Below are positions 2 through 44,063 of a stretch of 64,000 nt of DNA, in pieces. The DNA comes from a virus: IMG/VR virus record IMGVR_UViG_3300045988_158809. One strand, 5' to 3'. Numbering within the stretch: position 1 is the first letter of the stretch; the number at the start of each line of letters is the position of its first letter. The notes under the pieces were generated by a model. The model did no database searches and had not been told where the DNA came from. It saw only the letters and a list, made by a program, of their open reading frames with translations. Made by a program: the position numbers and the translations under genes.

Positions 2-106
2 CCTGTTGTTACCGACCAGGAACTATCTGATGAATTGAACAAATACAAGTTCAGACCCGATGTGATTGTAGATATAGAAGATGAAATATCCAGTGTGATA
101 AATTAA
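2..106 (+). CDS. 3' end of an unidentified CDS (partial at window edge)
   Basis: Frame is open from the window edge to TAA at 104-106. Same orientation as downstream genes. No motif recognised. Confidence 0.3.
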   Translation, partial: PVVTDQELSDELNKYKFRPDVIVDIEDEISSVIN

Positions 107-117
107 ATTGACTTTCG

Positions 118-750
118 ATGGCACGCGTTTTTTTGAGAGTCCCCGATTACATAGGGGCATACGTAAGAAACCGTAAGCCGGGTACACGCATCCCCATAGG
201 TGGGGATGTGTCTTTTCCTGAAAACAGTACGGTGTTCTTTCTCATCGCCGGAGCTTTGAGGGATAACCCGAACGGTGACTTTTTAGGTATTGATTGTTTT
301 TCTGAAAACCAATTCCAGCATTTTCAGGATTTGGCAAAAGGAAGTTATCCCACCGATGAAGACATCATGAGCTTTACCGGCTCTGAAAGAAAGGTGAAGG
401 AGAGAGGTGAATATATTTCCGTATCTTTGCCCAGAGAGATAGAAATAGGAGAACATCGAAAGGTGCCTTCTTCTTCATGGACATTATATCCTTCAAGTGT
501 TCCTTCTATTAAGAAGGAACTGAACCGCATGTTTTGGAGGGATTTTTTTGTTTACATGGAAAAGGAAAAAGACTTTGCTCTGGCTCATGGCACGGAACGC
601 ACGGTGATGGAAGGAATTGAGCGGTTCATGGAGCGATACGATATTCCGAATCAGTCAGGAAACGGCATGAAGAAAAACCTGAAGCGTAACTATTACCGCA
701 AGTTGGGCAGCACTTCATTTACCGAAGAGGAATACGTGGAGCACGCATAG
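118..750 (+). CDS. hypothetical protein
   Basis: 210-aa ORF with an ATG 12 nt after the previous stop. No recognisable motif. Confidence 0.55.
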   Translation: MARVFLRVPDYIGAYVRNRKPGTRIPIGGDVSFPENSTVFFLIAGALRDNPNGDFLGIDCFSENQFQHFQDLAKGSYPTDEDIMSFTGSERKVKERGEYISVSLPREIEIGEHRKVPSSSWTLYPSSVPSIKKELNRMFWRDFFVYMEKEKDFALAHGTERTVMEGIERFMERYDIPNQSGNGMKKNLKRNYYRKLGSTSFTEEEYVEHA

Positions 751-915
751 GGATTTTGAAGGCTTATTTTTGTAAATATTAAACGGTTATTTATTTATGT
801 AAAATTATAGTTAAACAAACGTCTGTTTTTGCCAATTTTTGTCACACGTATGTCACCACGCTTTATGCACGGGTTTTGTTAAATATTTTAATAGTAATAC
901 ACACATTATTATACT

Positions 916-1404
916 ATGCTTTGCGAACAGTTTAACGATATTGTAGAAATTTACCTGATACCCGAAAGTTCGGTCTCTCTTGCTACCCCTTTCCAGGTCG
1001 GTGCGCCCACTGTGGAAATTTCCGATTTTTCAGTGGCCGATGCCGAGCTCCGGAAAAACATCTGTTTTGCTCTTTCGGTTCCTGCCTTGTACGGCAAACC
1101 CACGTTCACTATGGAAATGGACGATCCTGCCGAAGTAAAGGTTACTTCGGAGAAAACCCGTGCGGGATTTCAGAAAAAAGTGTCCGTGACGGTGGAAATT
1201 TCCGATTATTCTCAGGAAGTGGAAGAAAAGATACCGGGAATAGAGAAAAAACCGCATCATCTTCTTATGTACCGTAGCGACGGAAGAAGAGTGTTCGTGC
1301 GGTGCTCTCCGTTTGCCTATCTCTGTTCAGTAGATGACACGAGCGATATAAAAACAATCCAGTTCGAGATAACCAACACGAACGGAATGCAGTTGGTTAT
1401 TTAA
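916..1404 (+). CDS. hypothetical protein
   Basis: 162-aa ORF followed by an intrinsic terminator. No motif recognised. Confidence 0.55.
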   Translation: MLCEQFNDIVEIYLIPESSVSLATPFQVGAPTVEISDFSVADAELRKNICFALSVPALYGKPTFTMEMDDPAEVKVTSEKTRAGFQKKVSVTVEISDYSQEVEEKIPGIEKKPHHLLMYRSDGRRVFVRCSPFAYLCSVDDTSDIKTIQFEITNTNGMQLVI

Positions 1405-26266: not shown

Positions 26267-26791
26267 ATGGCAGACATCTACAAACTTGCACCTTTCATCC
26301 TGAAGTGGGAGGGAGGTTTCGTGAGCGACCCCGTAGACAAGGGAGGCGCGACAAACATGGGAGTAACAATCGGCACCTGGCGCAGCGTGGGATACGACAA
26401 AGACGGCGACGGCGACATTGACGTGGACGACCTTCGTCTTCTTACCAGAGAAGACGTGATAGAACGCGTACTCCGTCCGCATTACTGGAACCGCTGGCGT
26501 GCCGACGAGATACACAACCAGTCAGTAGCGAACATCCTCGTAGACTGGGTATGGGCATCGGGTGCACACGGCATCCGCCGTCCGCAGCGCATCCTCGGAG
26601 TGACAGCCGACGGCATAGTAGGGCCGAAAACCCTTGTCGCAGTCAACTCAATGGACCCTATGGAGCTGCATTTCCGCATCAAGAACGACCGCATCCGTTT
26701 TATCGACGAAATCTGTAAGGCCAACCCCTCGCAGGAACGCTTCCGCCGCGGATGGCTCAACCGTATCAATGAGCTCACATTCAAGCCCTGA
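26267..26791 (+). CDS. endolysin, GH108-type lysozyme with a peptidoglycan-binding C-terminal domain
   Basis: Canonical GH108 N-terminus '[24 protein letters not shown]'. 174 aa. Confidence 0.8.
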
Positions 26792-27793: not shown

Positions 27794-28027
27794 AAAAAAA
27801 GGTTTTGAAGTTAAATTCTACATAGAATAACTCCAAAACCTCAGAACGTTTCCATTTTTCAGCATTGAAAAAGCAACAAATATGCCGAAAAACACGTTTT
27901 AAACCCAAAATTTCCGTGCCGTGCAAAATATGCCGTTGGCAAAGATAACTTTCCAATCAATAAGTAGTAGTTAATTATTAGTTAAATATTTTTCGCCACA
28001 ATGTTAACGCTGTACGAAAACCATATT

Positions 28028-28042
28028 AATTCACTGATTTTT
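28028..28042 (+). repeat. degenerate copy of the AAATCACTGATTTTT core
   Basis: AATTCACTGATTTTT, immediately 5' of the GC-rich island. Confidence 0.4.
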
Positions 28043-28044
28043 AG

Positions 28045-28345
28045 GCGATGAACGGCACGGGAAAAGTGTCTTTCGCGCGGAAAACCCGTCGCCACGCTAC
28101 GGGGCCGGCGGTCCGCACGGGGGCCGGTGGGGCTGGAAATATGCGGGTAGGGGGGCCCGGGGTGCGGTCCTGGTGTGCTGGTGTGTGGGTGCTTGGGTGT
28201 CCAGGTGGGCGGAGAAGGACCGGCGGCCGCCCCTTCTTGCTTCCCTGGTTGCATCGGGACGCGAAGGAAGACGACGAAGGCCGGCGGCCGTTCCTGATCC
28301 GTTGGCGGGTTGGCATGTTGGCGCGTGGGTGTGTAGGTGATTACG
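28045..28345 (+). other. G-rich, GC-rich non-coding island (structured RNA, genome terminus/cos, or R-loop candidate)
   Basis: ~300 nt with strong G excess on the + strand, including GGGGGGCCCGGGG. Contains the repeated CCGGCGG(C/T)CCG and a long imperfect hairpin at 28222-28292. ORFs here on either strand translate to Pro/Gly/Arg low-complexity sequence. Confidence 0.5.
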
Positions 28346-28402
28346 TGCGTGTATTGATTTCTGGCGTGTACAATATTTTTTTTGAAAATAAGTTGTATCT
28401 TA

Positions 28403-28434
28403 TTTGCATACTTAGAATATATGTAGTATATTTG
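28403..28434 (+). promoter_or_regulatory. Bacteroides-type promoter
   Basis: TTTG (28403-28406), 20 nt, TATATTTG (28427-28434). Lies ~48 nt upstream of the ATG at 28482. Confidence 0.6.
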
Positions 28435-28481
28435 CATACAGATAAAACAAAACAAGTAATAACATTCTAAAGCTTACGATT

Positions 28482-28793
28482 ATGAAGAAAGAAAAACTTT
28501 ATCAGATTACAGGAACTACCAACAGTTGGATAGCTCAGCGCGATTTAAAGTTCAACGGTAAAACAAGAATTACCCTTGAAAAAGACTTGACATTAAAGGA
28601 AGCATATAATAAGCTGCTTGATATGTTTAACAATGATTACGAGGATGAAGGCTGGTACGCTGAGAATTGGGGTATAGCTGTTAACATATCCAATCGCAAA
28701 GCGTCGCCAACCTTCAGCGATGGCACACGCATGTACGAATACGATTCCAGATATTATAAGATTGAGGAACAGGAAGAAGAAGCCAATGAATAA
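28482..28793 (+). CDS. hypothetical protein
   Basis: 103-aa ORF that overlaps the next start by 8 nt. Confidence 0.55.
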   Translation: MKKEKLYQITGTTNSWIAQRDLKFNGKTRITLEKDLTLKEAYNKLLDMFNNDYEDEGWYAENWGIAVNISNRKASPTFSDGTRMYEYDSRYYKIEEQEEEANE

Positions 28794-30198: not shown

Positions 30199-30570
30199 AT
30201 GAGAACAAATATAAGAACCACCGCCGAAAGTAACGCAGTTGTAAACCACTTTTTTCCTATTCATTGCATTGTAGTGAACCACGCAGCGCCCGCAGCCGTA
30301 CAGGATGACGAACAGGCATTACTTTACGTATGGCGTGAGATAATGTGCGCCGGCCATCATTGGAACATTGATTTTCTTAACACCCCGCAGGGAAATGTGT
30401 ACAGCCTTAACCCGTGTTTGCTGCATCATTATTTTGATAACAGCTTTATCAGCTTTGAGGAGCTGAAGAAATCGGCCTACGTGGACGAATACCAGAATAT
30501 AACAGCTTTTCCGGACACAGGAAAGAATCTTGTTAATATGGTTAATCTTTGCAGTGTTTATCCTGCTTAA
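30199..30570 (+). CDS. hypothetical protein
   Basis: 123-aa ORF. Confidence 0.5.
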   Translation: MRTNIRTTAESNAVVNHFFPIHCIVVNHAAPAAVQDDEQALLYVWREIMCAGHHWNIDFLNTPQGNVYSLNPCLLHHYFDNSFISFEELKKSAYVDEYQNITAFPDTGKNLVNMVNLCSVYPA

Positions 30571-30629
30571 TTCTTCACACTATAAATCTATATCTAACTA
30601 TTTTTCCCAACTTTTTAATACTTACTATT

Positions 30630-32390
30630 ATGACTTATTTCCAGAATATAACCAGCCTTTCAGAATTGAAAAAACAATACCGTGAACTTGTAAAGAACAA
30701 CCACCCGGATAAGGGTGGCGATATAGCCGTAATGCAGGATATTAACAACGAGTTTGAGCAGTTGTACAACATTTGGAAAGACAGAAAAGAAACTGAAGAT
30801 AATACAGGCTACGCCAACGACTACGAAGGTGCAACCGCTAAGCAGTACACGCAACACGTTTACGAGGAGTACGGCTGGACCGGCTCACGCCGTGACCGTT
30901 CGTACACACGTAAGGAACTGAAAGTAATTTTCGCTAAGTGGTTAAAAGAAACTTATAAGGGCTGTACATTCTCTATCAGTCTGAGCGGATATAATAGTAT
31001 TTGCGTGCGGCTTCTCAAAGCTGATTTTAACCCGTTCAAGGGCGATGTGAAATTAAAATATAGCTTTTCGCGCTACAGTATAACCGATGATCCGGAACTG
31101 AATGACCGAGCAAAAGAGATGTTTAATAACATAGAATCTTATCTCATGTCATACAATTATGACCACTCAGATTTAATGACCGATTATTACGATGTAGGTT
31201 TTTATTTTGACATGGAAATAGGAAGCGGTAAAACTCCGTTCAAAGTAGAGATACCGAAAAACCGCCGCGCGTCTGGGGCTTGTTCCGCTGAATTCAAGTA
31301 CAAGGAAGGGCCGGCACATCAGGCAATTAAAAAAGCGTTAGGCAAACAATACTTTGCCGATGTTGTAAATTATGGGTTAGTATTAGGTTCTGATTATATC
31401 TATAATGATAGCGTATTTTTTAGCGCAAATAATTATTCAGCGCCAAAAACTATGCGTAAAAAAATGGATAAACTTTTATCCGTTGGAATAGTTACAAAAG
31501 CTAAATACGGTTGTATTGTGTTCGTAGGTTATACTCCAGAAGTAGAAAAATCTTTAGCCGATGAAGACCGCGCAAAAGAAGAAGCGTATAAAAGATGGAA
31601 AGAAGAACAGGCCAAAGGAACAGCCGGAAAGTCTCACAAAGAAAATATATCCTATGGAGACGGAGAAAAATCACTGTTTTCTGACGGACAGGGAAGCGAA
31701 AAAATCGGCGAATTTGAACTTGTAAACTATTCGGAAAAAGCGTTTGCCGTTGTCGGCGACACACGCGAAATAAAGGATCTTTTAAAGGAAAACGGAGGCC
31801 GTTTTAATCCGGCGTTAACAGTTAACGGCGTGAAGTGTGCCGGCTGGATATTCAGCAAAAAGAGCCTTCAGGCCGTACGTCTGGCCCTGATAGGTTATAC
31901 TGTCCAGGATATAACAGTAGATCAGGAACAGCCGGAACAGGAACAGGCGCAAACGATTGAGCCGGACAAAGAAAATACATCCTATGGAGACGGAGAAAAA
32001 TCACTGATTTTTTTCAATGCTTTTGTATCTTTTTGGGATGCCGTTCAGGAAGTAATGAAAGAACAGCCGGAAGAAGAAAAACAGCCGGAGCCGGAAGATA
32101 TTGCAAAAGTGCTGGAAGTATTCCCGGCTTTACTAGATGCCGTTTGTGAAATAATGAAAGCGGAGCCAGGCAAGGAGCCACGGAACAAGGAACGCGAACA
32201 GGGTACCAATGAAATATATAATTCCGTTTGCTCCTCCGCTATTCTTTCGGGTGATTATATCAAGGCACGCCAGGAAATAAAACAGGCTATAAGGCAATAC
32301 CGTTTTACGTTGCCACAGCTCAAATATTTGATTTATATCCTGAATACTCACCCCGGCATAAAAAGGGAAAGCCACAGAAAGGCGGCATAA
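30630..32390 (+). CDS. J-domain (DnaJ-like) protein, apparently built from three modules
   Basis: N-terminal 'LSELKKQYRELVKNNHPDKGGD' carries the HPD motif. ATG at 30630. The ORF reads through two internal copies of the intergenic repeat. Confidence 0.7.
   Translation: MTYFQNITSLSELKKQYRELVKNNHPDKGGDIAVMQDINNEFEQLYNIWKDRKETEDNTGYANDYEGATAKQYTQHVYEEYGWTGSRRDRSYTRKELKVIFAKWLKETYKGCTFSISLSGYNSICVRLLKADFNPFKGDVKLKYSFSRYSITDDPELNDRAKEMFNNIESYLMSYNYDHSDLMTDYYDVGFYFDMEIGSGKTPFKVEIPKNRRASGACSAEFKYKEGPAHQAIKKALGKQYFADVVNYGLVLGSDYIYNDSVFFSANNYSAPKTMRKKMDKLLSVGIVTKAKYGCIVFVGYTPEVEKSLADEDRAKEEAYKRWKEEQAKGTAGKSHKENISYGDGEKSLFSDGQGSEKIGEFELVNYSEKAFAVVGDTREIKDLLKENGGRFNPALTVNGVKCAGWIFSKKSLQAVRLALIGYTVQDITVDQEQPEQEQAQTIEPDKENTSYGDGEKSLIFFNAFVSFWDAVQEVMKEQPEEEKQPEPEDIAKVLEVFPALLDAVCEIMKAEPGKEPRNKEREQGTNEIYNSVCSSAILSGDYIKARQEIKQAIRQYRFTLPQLKYLIYILNTHPGIKRESHRKAA
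31651..31680 (+). repeat. gene-end repeat copy inside the J-domain ORF
   Basis: CCTATGGAGACGGAGAAAAATCACTGTTTT, translated as SYGDGEKSLF. Confidence 0.8.
31981..32014 (+). repeat. gene-end repeat copy inside the J-domain ORF
   Basis: CCTATGGAGACGGAGAAAAATCACTGATTTTTTT. The 41 nt at 31966-32006 match 31636-31676 with one mismatch. Confidence 0.8.
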
Positions 32391-33555: not shown

Positions 33556-33587
33556 TAGAATATTTTTAAAAATAATTGTAGTTTTAT

Positions 33588-33618
33588 TTTGCTGCATCAA
33601 AATAAAACCTTATCTTTG
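33588..33618 (+). promoter_or_regulatory. Bacteroides-type promoter (copy 1 of a duplicated promoter-leader)
   Basis: TTTG, 19 nt, TATCTTTG. The surrounding ~50 nt is nearly identical to 34302-34353. Confidence 0.65.
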
Positions 33619-33680
33619 TCACAGAATTAAGAAACAAACCATTAAAAGTGGGGGCAACACTATAAACACCGCGGAAAATC

Positions 33681-34271: not shown

Positions 34272-34320
34272 TTTGATGATATAAAACATATTTTTCCATA
34301 TAAAATAATTGTGTTTTTAT

Positions 34321-34351
34321 TTTGCAAAAACAAAATAAAACCTTATCTTTG
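34321..34351 (+). promoter_or_regulatory. Bacteroides-type promoter (copy 2)
   Basis: TTTG (34321-34324), 19 nt, TATCTTTG (34344-34351). Confidence 0.65.
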
Positions 34352-34386
34352 TATCAGTGTTAAGGAACAAACATTATTTACTTTTT

Positions 34387-34413
34387 ACCGTGGTGGCAAC
34401 ACGTCAATTCAGC
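34387..34413 (+). repeat. 27-nt leader repeat ACCGTGGTGGCAACACGTCAATTCAGC (copy a)
   Basis: Identical to 34725-34751. A related GTGGGGGCAACAC lies at 33648-33660. Confidence 0.8.
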
Positions 34414-34724: not shown

Positions 34725-34751
34725 ACCGTGGTGGCAACACGTCAATTCAGC
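34725..34751 (+). repeat. 27-nt leader repeat (copy b)
   Basis: Exact copy of 34387-34413, lying 10 nt upstream of the ATG at 34761. Confidence 0.8.
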
Positions 34752-37656: not shown

Positions 37657-37688
37657 CCTATGGACCTATAAAAATATCACTGTTTTTT
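37657..37688 (+). repeat. gene-end repeat copy abutting the next ATG
   Basis: CCTATGGACCTATAAAAATATCACTGTTTTTT. The T-run ends at 37688 and the ATG is at 37689. Confidence 0.75.
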
Positions 37689-43500: not shown

Positions 43501-43601
43501 GATGAATGTGTTTTGTTTCCGGCAAAGGTAGAAATAATTTCTAAATAATGAAATATTATTCTGGCATATTTCTATAAATCGAAATTATAAGAAAATATAT
43601 A

Positions 43602-43738
43602 GTTGTAGTAATTTGTACCTTCAGGCTGAAAAGTTGTAGTAAATTGTACTAAATGTTGGGGTAATTTGTACAATAAGTTGTAGTAATTTGTACCAAATGT
43701 TGTAGTAAATTGTCCCTATAGTTGTAGTAATTTGTACC
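43602..43738 (+). repeat. iteron array (6 direct repeats)
   Basis: GTTGTAGTAA(A)TTTGTACC-type 18-mers start at 43602, 43633, 43655, 43677, 43699 and 43721. The last five are spaced exactly 22 bp apart. Confidence 0.85.
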
Positions 43739-43917
43739 GAAGCGTTTTTAATTTGCTGATTTTCAATTATTATTGCATCGTTATATATCTATATCTTATC
43801 ATTTCATATTTAAGCAGAACGAAAGGTATTTATTCTATAAATAATAATCTTTCCTCTTTTCCATATACTATGATGGATATATGATATAGAGAGTTTGTGA
43901 CGGTTGAATTTCAGAAG
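43739..43917. other. AT-rich spacer (candidate DNA unwinding element of the origin)
   Basis: Very AT-rich and ORF-free. Bracketed by oppositely oriented iteron arrays. Confidence 0.5.
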
Positions 43918-43932
43918 GTTACAAATGCGTTT

Positions 43933-44063
43933 GTACAAATTACTACAACATTTGGTACAAAACGCTCAAACATTAGGGGCAAAACGGTGCAACATTACGG
44001 CCAAAATGATACAGCATTAGGGACAAAAAGTTCCAACTATACGGTCACAAAAATAGCAGCCCC
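43933..44063 (-). repeat. second, inverted and degenerate iteron array
   Basis: GTACAAATTACTACAAC is the exact reverse complement of the iteron core. It is followed by about five degenerate units (..GGNCAAAA....CAAC) at 21-22-bp spacing. Confidence 0.7.

Follow-up and report, generated by a model that had tools for sequence, protein, structure and literature searches.

The 64,000-nucleotide stretch of DNA analysed here (IMG/VR virus record IMGVR_UViG_3300045988_158809, referred to below as the window) is phage-like, with almost every gene on the + strand, and carries at the boundary of its late and early genes a GC-rich island of about 300 nucleotides (nt; 28045-28345). This island appears to be one half, the GC-rich one, of a non-coding module that has two parts and is present in a large group of uncultured Bacteroidales phages. 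Structural and lysis genes lie to the left, followed by a lipoprotein-like gene on the opposite strand, possibly a moron with a host-type promoter of its own, whilst to the right are small early-type genes, including one for a helix-turn-helix (HTH) protein (Table 1). A first-pass annotation, made from the letters of the sequence, had placed the island at the junction of late and early genes, directly after a degenerate motif core and just before a host-type promoter, and this layout was borne out at all three points: lysis genes are found on one side and early-type genes on the other, the degenerate core is AATTCACTGATTTTT, and the promoter-like site precedes the gene starting at 28482.

The same annotation had described a GC-rich segment with an excess of G set in AT-rich flanks, with recurring CCGGCGG words, and as non-coding in spite of low-complexity open reading frames (ORFs), a description which holds in full. 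The island has a GC content of 0.678 (68% G+C; 131 G against 73 C, with 40 A and 57 T), and no other 300-nt segment of the 64 kb is as rich in GC as the one starting at 28041 (0.677; the mean is 0.428, the standard deviation 0.067, and the runner-up reaches 0.60). In a 200-nt profile the GC content peaks at 0.715 with a GC skew of about +0.29, the flanks lying at 0.30-0.40, and CCGGCGG is located on the + strand at 28105, 28220 and 28281. A Pfam search of the ORF products gave no match, and relatives are separated across the island by indels of 1, 2 and 3 nt and of whole repeat units. Because these indels break the frame the island is not coding, and a protein-coding gene was thus rejected. 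Public gene calls do put ORFs on the GC-rich island (L033 3320-3766; L027 6910-7173; proteins P0038 and P0040-P0044), and others lengthen the first early gene by about 60 residues upstream into it; these calls are probably annotation artefacts of composition. Three further candidates were also discarded, namely an array resembling clustered regularly interspaced short palindromic repeats (CRISPR), as the repeat-spacer layout is missing; a retron or diversity-generating retroelement, as there is no reverse transcriptase nearby; and a phage attachment site (attP), as the core described below is found in 0 of 185,579 species-representative genomes and the integrase of the relatives lies about 6 kb away.

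Relatives of the window were drawn from IMG/VR, JGI/ENA metagenomes and Logan assemblies, two of them (L017 and L034) being too short to reach the core of the island. The core is conserved in the relatives, as part of a conserved block which runs from about 27868 to 28162 and which also takes in an AT-rich segment upstream and an AT-rich spacer. The core has hardly changed in L011 and L012, although the lipoprotein-like protein of these is only 62-68% identical, and in L016, where that protein is 50% identical, it is still recognised with 49.5 bits by a covariance model, R1, built from the close relatives (the window scores 139 bits and other close relatives 120-149 bits). An insertion of about 1.9 kb in L007 parts the upstream block from the lipoprotein-like gene, with the block still joined to the core. 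The spacing is also nearly fixed: the anchors TGCCGTTGGCAAAGATA and GCCACGCTAC are 160 nt apart in 18 of 20 loci (L016, the most divergent, is one of these), and 159 and 149 nt apart in L011 and L012, respectively. Judged from these alignments, the core, which is single-copy in the window, is under purifying selection and better conserved than the adjacent protein-coding gene. No copy of it was found in the GTDB species representatives, and two GTDB scans returned no prophage copy, a wider motif having matched one 8-kb contig of a metagenome-assembled genome alone.

The module is distributed well beyond these close relatives. In most relatives the first gene after the island encodes a 114-aa protein (L005:7998-8342) from a family of at least 339 clusters with no Pfam match, and a profile search of IMG/VR with this family gave 68 loci, on contigs mostly of about 50-120 kb and many of about 100 kb. 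At least seven lineages among these share the order M1 - M2 - M3 - GC-rich variable region - early gene; that is, TAAATAATTGAWAWTYAGAG, about 65 nt, GAC..CGCCGCCACACTGG, about 48 nt and CTGRAATATGC, and then the GC-rich variable region, a T-run followed by TATATATAATAAGGT, AT-rich DNA and the gene. In these other lineages TAAATAATTGAWAWTYAGAG occupies the position matching AATTCACTGATTTTT in the window, M2 is at the same relative position in lineages B-G, and the ATATGC of M3 is invariant over the aligned lineages. Model R1 did not detect the core in lineage B, and a final pattern scan of IMG/VR gave mostly chance matches. In lineage B (L040 8780-9230, - strand, and related loci) an HTH gene of Cro/CI type faces away from the module and replaces the lipoprotein-like gene, an arrangement with the divergent layout of an immunity region. 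A distant homologue of a 209-aa late protein (P0032) belongs to a lineage with a different gene order. Among 50,697 GenBank phage records there was no DNA similarity to the island or to 24 kb of the late region, and one structural protein had no match in GenBank phages; the sole protein likeness to these phages is a distant one, between another protein of the window and a Flavobacterium phage head protease.

Past the core the island is hypervariable. Contigs L024-L029 have an identical core and differ in the copy number of a repeat unit, L001 carries a 58-nt unit 2.7 times, the variable part is missing in L008 and replaced by mostly AT-rich sequence in L015, and a different GT-rich type is found in L006, L010, L011, L027 and L033. 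On its sequence, this part is a minisatellite-like spacer in which the base composition is conserved and the sequence is not. The long imperfect hairpin that the first-pass annotation had drawn at 28222-28292 is indeed predicted (28215-28300 folds at -41 kcal/mol and the hairpin is present in the minimum-free-energy structure of the whole island), but it is composed of two copies of a palindrome-containing unit, lies wholly in the unstable part and is not conserved, since L008 lacks it and L015, L027 and L033 have other sequence in its place. Across the 68 loci the variable region forms a tandem array in about 30, with a period of 41-131 nt, 2-6 copies and a GC content of 0.56-0.69; its + strand is CA-rich in some lineages and GT-rich in the rest, among them that of the window. 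Lineages B, C and D carry CCACC/CCCAC every 20-21 bp, a periodicity absent from the variable part of the window. The genes to the right of the island differ among close relatives (ArdA, BRCT, MutS_I, HTH and Pyr_excise cassettes) and the island therefore lies on a mosaic junction.

Two short hairpins, P1 and P3, can be drawn in the core, at the 5' end of the island, and they have comparative support that comes mostly from one divergent sequence. Single-sequence folding predicts P1 in every relative but one. In L016 its stem reads AGACT/AGTCT, with four of the five pairs altered on both sides and the loop GGGAAAA unchanged, and in the R1-based alignment with L016 the covariation score of P1 was reached by none of 500 shuffles. 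A G.T pair of P1 becomes G.C in seven sequences, and the G.U or wobble pairs of both hairpins are possible on the + strand only. The support for P3 is weaker: its block variants are all complementary (TCC/GGG in the window, CCGGCGCCTC/GAGGGGCCGG in L006, GGCGGCGCCTC/GAGGTGCCGCC in L027 and CCTT/GGGG in L016) and it is paired in 72-76% of cells, with a single C.G to G.C swap, in L027, as the one pair in which both sides have changed. A long-range helix, GGCGATG/CGYCGCC, was rejected as mismatched in most relatives, as was an RNAalifold helix between 28085-28097 and 28144-28155, which is lost in L016. The proposal that the island as a whole is a structured non-coding RNA fared poorly, as it folds no more stably than dinucleotide shuffles (z of -0.21 on the + strand and +0.08 on the - strand), the drawn hairpin is unstable, the wider group has no fold in common and Rfam 15 gave no match at the gathering score in all 64 kb. 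At E<=10, two weak, chance-level Rfam matches were obtained in 27800-28600, neither inside the island, and a scan for transfer and transfer-messenger RNAs found nothing.

The motif at the head of the core belongs to a family repeated in the window, with 29 matches at up to three mismatches where 5.8 are expected. The fuller form, CCTATGG-N10-AAATCACTGATTTTT, of which AAATCA(C/G)TGATTTTT is the second half, occurs in 13 copies between 31636 and 40868, mostly 3-80 nt upstream of the start codons of small + strand genes; at 37674 the ATG directly abuts the T-run of the motif. By its placement this looks like a phage-specific class of promoter or operator for middle genes. The second half of the motif is a 13-bp palindrome. 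Two copies (31636-31680 and 31966-32010) are inside an ORF (30549-32390) for a 613-aa DnaJ/LPD29 protein, in which they encode a repeated ..SYGDGEKSL..; these may be internal promoters or a recombination scar.

We tentatively read the module as a leader or control region close to a promoter, bearing two small hairpins and a pair of conserved single-stranded motifs, which together with a minisatellite spacer heads a variable block of early genes; this is a plausible account, though one that may well be wrong. Its first part (28028-28162) would be a control element, made up of a phage-type promoter or operator motif followed by the core of about 120 nt. Transcription would begin just past the T-run of the motif, at about 28043, and the resulting transcript would have the core as its 5' leader, with the hairpins and the single-stranded motifs of the core as putative recognition signals, for proteins or the polymerase, that would govern the rightward genes. 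The conservation, the lack of coding, the hypervariability, the wide occurrence of the module and the pair changes in its hairpins are established by the comparisons; we infer the promoter function of the motif, the transcription of the core and its control of these genes from sequence features. The second part (28163-28345) would be a GT-rich spacer of the minisatellite kind, altered by slippage and recombination, and would mark the point at which different early-gene cassettes are joined.

Several observations weigh against this account and it should be considered with caution. The copy of AATTCACTGATTTTT at the island is without the upstream CCTATGG half that other copies carry. Host-type promoters are found between the island and the first early gene, and the early genes are thus not dependent on a leader transcript. 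The 14 close relatives show no covariation beyond chance, and the signal for P1 represents one evolutionary event, that in L016, in an alignment fitted to the P1 structure. RNAalifold found no consensus fold across the lineages, the folding z of the core ranges from -2.75 to +1.67 over 23 sequences, and the + strand of several lineages is rich in C, poor in G and hence hardly able to fold. The feature common to all lineages is not a fold but a series of linear motifs with fixed spacing, which fits DNA-binding sites as well as RNA.

Table 1. Features of the module and of its surroundings, with their positions in the window.
Feature	Position	Strand	Remarks
GH108 lysin	26267-26791		After structural genes, left of the island
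Lipoprotein-like gene, 294 aa	26909-27793	-	Between lysin and module; no Pfam match, only 10 database clusters
AT-rich upstream block	27868-27950		Moves with the core; near-invariant in 4 relatives
ACGGCACGG	27914-27922	-	Inverted copy of 28052-28060
Host-type Bacteroides -7 box TATCTTTG	27940-27947	-	Presumed promoter (see text)
AT-rich spacer	27951-28027		Sequence variable, length nearly fixed
Promoter/operator-like motif AATTCACTGATTTTT	28028-28042	+	Degenerate copy of repeated AAATCA(C/G)TGATTTTT element
Conserved GC-rich core	28042-28162	+	Mean column identity 90%, 14 distinct relatives
Predicted hairpin P1	28045-28078	+	Upper stem 28054-28058/28066-28070 (GGCAC/GTGTC), loop GGGAAAA 28059-28065, lower stem 28045-28052/28072-28078
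Linear motif M2 CCCGTCGCCACGCTAC	28085-28100	+	Core CGCCGCCACRCT..; CGCCGCCACACTGG in other lineages; (near-)invariant in the window lineage
Predicted hairpin P3	28104-28128	+	Around loop GCAC 28115-28118
Linear motif M3 CTGGAAATATGCGG (CTGRAATATGC)	28133-28146	+	3' limit of the conserved core
Hypervariable GT-rich part	28163-28345
8-nt GT microrepeats	28170-28193, 28301-28323		Tandem Repeats Finder (TRF)
Palindrome-containing unit of about 58-60 nt, about 1.3 copies	28215-28296		TRF; the long hairpin of the first-pass annotation
Low-complexity Pro/Gly/Arg-rich ORFs on the island	28048-28470; 27982-28455; 28041-28316	+; -; -
Host-type promoter region for the first early gene	28395-28440	+	Outside the island; sigma-70-like match 28403-28432
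First early gene	28482-28793
Rep-like protein, 514 aa	41643-43187	-	DnaA_N and weak Rep3_C matches
22-bp direct repeats AAGTTGTAGTAATTTGTACC, five to seven, plus inverted copy	43598-43740, 43931-43960		Beside the Rep-like gene

The main alternative to the leader reading is a role at the level of DNA, with the module serving packaging, lying at a terminus or acting as a lytic origin of replication. In the first of these the module would be a packaging or terminus region (pac, cos or the edge of a direct terminal repeat) at which a terminase or an accessory protein binds the motifs and repeats; the physical left end of the genome would then lie here and the early anti-restriction genes would enter the cell first. 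The placement fits, as the lysis genes end and the early genes begin here, with ArdA and accessory cassettes leading in relatives, and the spacing of the linear motifs is fixed. About 19 of the 68 contigs, moreover, start 270-830 nt upstream of the conserved early gene, one ends in the array just past the core, and three short contigs (L013, L014 and L031) extend no further than where the island begins. However, the contig starts fall within arrays at differing repeat units and registers and at no fixed base, which is the pattern expected of a repeat that a circular or concatemeric assembly graph cannot resolve; such a pattern could arise with or without a physical end. The island is spanned by the window itself and by three near-full-length contigs (93-99 kb), no terminase gene was found adjoining it, the repeats are dispensable (L008, L015), and a second copy of the island sequence is absent from the 64 kb, the genome being about 95 kb judging by related contigs. 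The cos site or terminal repeat suggested by the first-pass annotation is not upheld as stated, and we consider a packaging role unlikely.

A second, lytic origin is doubtful. Here a persistent RNA-DNA hybrid at the G-rich tract would prime synthesis, or an initiator would bind the arrays, and there are features in keeping with this: in the lineage of the window, transcription from the promoter-like motif would have the G-rich strand as its non-template strand, an AT-rich spacer adjoins, and the regular CCACC/CCCAC words of lineages B, C and D are iteron-like, as is the variable copy number. Set against these, the G-rich strand flips in many lineages, some members are without arrays, the variable part of the window lacks the 20-bp periodicity and no initiator gene lies beside the island. 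A canonical G-quadruplex motif (four tracts of at least three G, loops of 1-7 nt) is absent from the + strand of the island; a relaxed motif, with loops of up to 12 nt, occurs once (28119-28155, + strand), and the G tracts of L015 are too few for a G-quadruplex. A standard origin is in any case already present, as the Rep-like gene with its Rep3-like match and adjacent 22-bp repeats at 41.6-43.7 kb resemble a plasmid-like Rep-plus-iteron origin within a phage genome and would be a better candidate than the island. The G-quadruplex or R-loop secondary origin that had been proposed for the island is not upheld as stated, and a second origin, though conceivable, would not be needed.

The core and the GT/CA array could together constitute an undescribed class of phage cis-element, in which the arrays would be Chi-like sites for the AddAB of the Bacteroidales or sites for a phage protein, a speculative idea to which we give little weight. 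If true, the genome end entering first would be both protected and recombined, which would drive cassette exchange in the early anti-defence region, and this in one of the commonest groups of gut phage. A related explanation, and a very improbable one, is that the GT/CA-rich part is a recombination hotspot, a Chi-like cluster for the host AddAB or GT-rich DNA preferred by RecA, through which the phage DNA is protected or recombined, yielding the cassette shuffling on the right. A strong GT (or CA) strand bias was seen in all 36 variable regions examined, the words most shared among them being CCACCG (24/36), CCACCGAT (14/36) and CCACCAGC (12/36), of which the last is the complement of the Escherichia coli Chi octamer, and the island coincides with the mosaic junction. 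Chi-rich phages are known (PMC12315714). However, the authors of a 2010 study (PMC2887965) did not know which Chi sequence the AddAB of Bacteroides fragilis recognises, and because of this no Chi word can be matched. In addition, Chi acts in one orientation, whereas the arrays and CCACCAGC occur in both, the exact GCTGGTGG is absent from the island of the window, and the common words may simply mirror composition. Finally, a stand-alone trans-acting RNA spanning the whole island, such as a decoy or antitoxin mimic against host defence with its repeat number under selection, has a precedent in the phage pseudo-ToxI repeats that expand to escape ToxIN and would suit the + strand hairpins, the changes in copy number from strain to strain and the position in front of early genes rich in anti-defence functions (ArdA), but it is very improbable given that there is no terminator-like site, Rfam match or toxin-like partner, that Pfam has no match for the conserved protein downstream, and that the flip of strand bias from lineage to lineage would wholly change such an RNA.

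Around the module, PHROGs and Pfam searches of the neighbouring genes came back mostly empty, and a terminator scan gave no terminator-like site. The upstream box TATCTTTG is one that we take to be a promoter from the Bacteroides consensus TAnnTTTG. To the right, TAtaTTTG and TTATTTGC boxes are visible in the promoter region of the first early gene, a region which both L007 and L033 have kept. A 71-nt promoter-like segment (..TATCTTTG..) occurs twice (33569-33639 and 34302-34372, with 85% identity), each time before an early gene, and similar segments precede different cassettes in relatives, which suggests portable promoter-leader units. A further short element, GTGGKGGCAACAC, with a CGTG/CACG stem and a G-rich loop, is present in three exact copies (33648-33660, 34390-34402 and 34728-34740), located within early ORF starts or just ahead of them; stem-changed variants occur as AGTGGGGGCAACACT in L026 and CGGGTGGCAACCG in L205, and a 5'-leader RNA motif is possible. 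In many close relatives a tyrosine integrase (Arm-DNA-bind_5, Phage_int_SAM_5, Phage_integrase) is encoded about 6 kb left of the island, for example at 132-1325 in L024 and about 100-1300 (- strand) in L005; the corresponding region of the window, about 20.7-23.8 kb, carries unrelated genes without Pfam match. Going by gene content, lifestyle may differ between close relatives.

The module is common to dozens of large contigs of gut Bacteroidales phages without a cultured relative, and offers a handle on the start of their early programme. It also marks the junction at which early accessory genes such as ArdA (anti-restriction), BRCT and MutS_I are swapped between strains. With its small size, single copy and good conservation, the core should be readily testable given a host. 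The array has practical consequences too: it is a recurrent assembly breakpoint, so that direct terminal repeats or genome ends reported for such contigs may be artefacts and completeness calls may rest on the array, and gene callers put spurious ORFs on the locus. The contigs that start or end inside it (about 12-109 kb, most of them 88-109 kb) are L045, L047, L051, L056, L060-L062, L067, L069-L071, L076, L078, L085, L093, L094 and L165.

Compared with known systems, the core under the leader reading would resemble the nut sites of lambda-type phages (boxA and boxB) and to the put RNAs of HK022, which are promoter-proximal antitermination leaders of early operons. As in these, the module stands where the early region starts, directly after a promoter-like motif, it has a 5-bp hairpin in which the stem varies and a purine-rich loop is kept (GGGAAAA, GGGGAAA, GGAAGAA), and conserved single-stranded motifs stand beside the hairpin. 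It differs from nut in that the loop of P1 has 7 nt where that of boxB is a GNRA-like pentaloop, that no boxA consensus was recognised (none being known to us for Bacteroidales) and that no N-like arginine-rich protein follows, the first products downstream having no Pfam match and not being arginine-rich by eye. Unlike both nut and put, it is separated from the first gene by host-type promoters and its hairpin is not found in all lineages; an antitermination role would be conjectural.

The repeats invite other comparisons. With the iteron arrays of the lambda origin and of the ori and crr of phage P4 they share tandem direct repeats beside an AT-rich segment, a variable copy number and, in lineages B, C and D, a motif spacing of 20-21 bp; unlike iterons, they have long, GC-rich units of 41-131 nt and are not always present, the island of the window has no periodicity and there is a separate Rep-plus-iteron locus at 43.6 kb. 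The position between the last late and the first early genes, the repeat arrays and the early anti-restriction genes on the inner side recall the non-coding terminal repeats, with their short arrays, at the genome ends of T7-, T5- and N4-like phages, although assemblies cross the module, there is no sign of a physical end and the island is not duplicated in the 64 kb. The repeat-based RNA of type III toxin-antitoxin systems, ToxI, is a further comparison: it has repeats of about 34-45 nt, a terminator and a ToxN-family gene, whereas the window has about 1.3 copies of its unit, no terminator-like site and downstream proteins without Pfam match. Minisatellites, or variable number tandem repeats, are alike in that the copy number of a 41-131-nt unit varies by strain, the flanks are identical and short-read assemblies break; unlike them, the module is tied to a strongly conserved core, keeps one fixed genomic position over many lineages and has a GC content some 25 points above the genome mean. 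The element matches no described family, and is akin to known kinds of phage regulatory or repeat regions.

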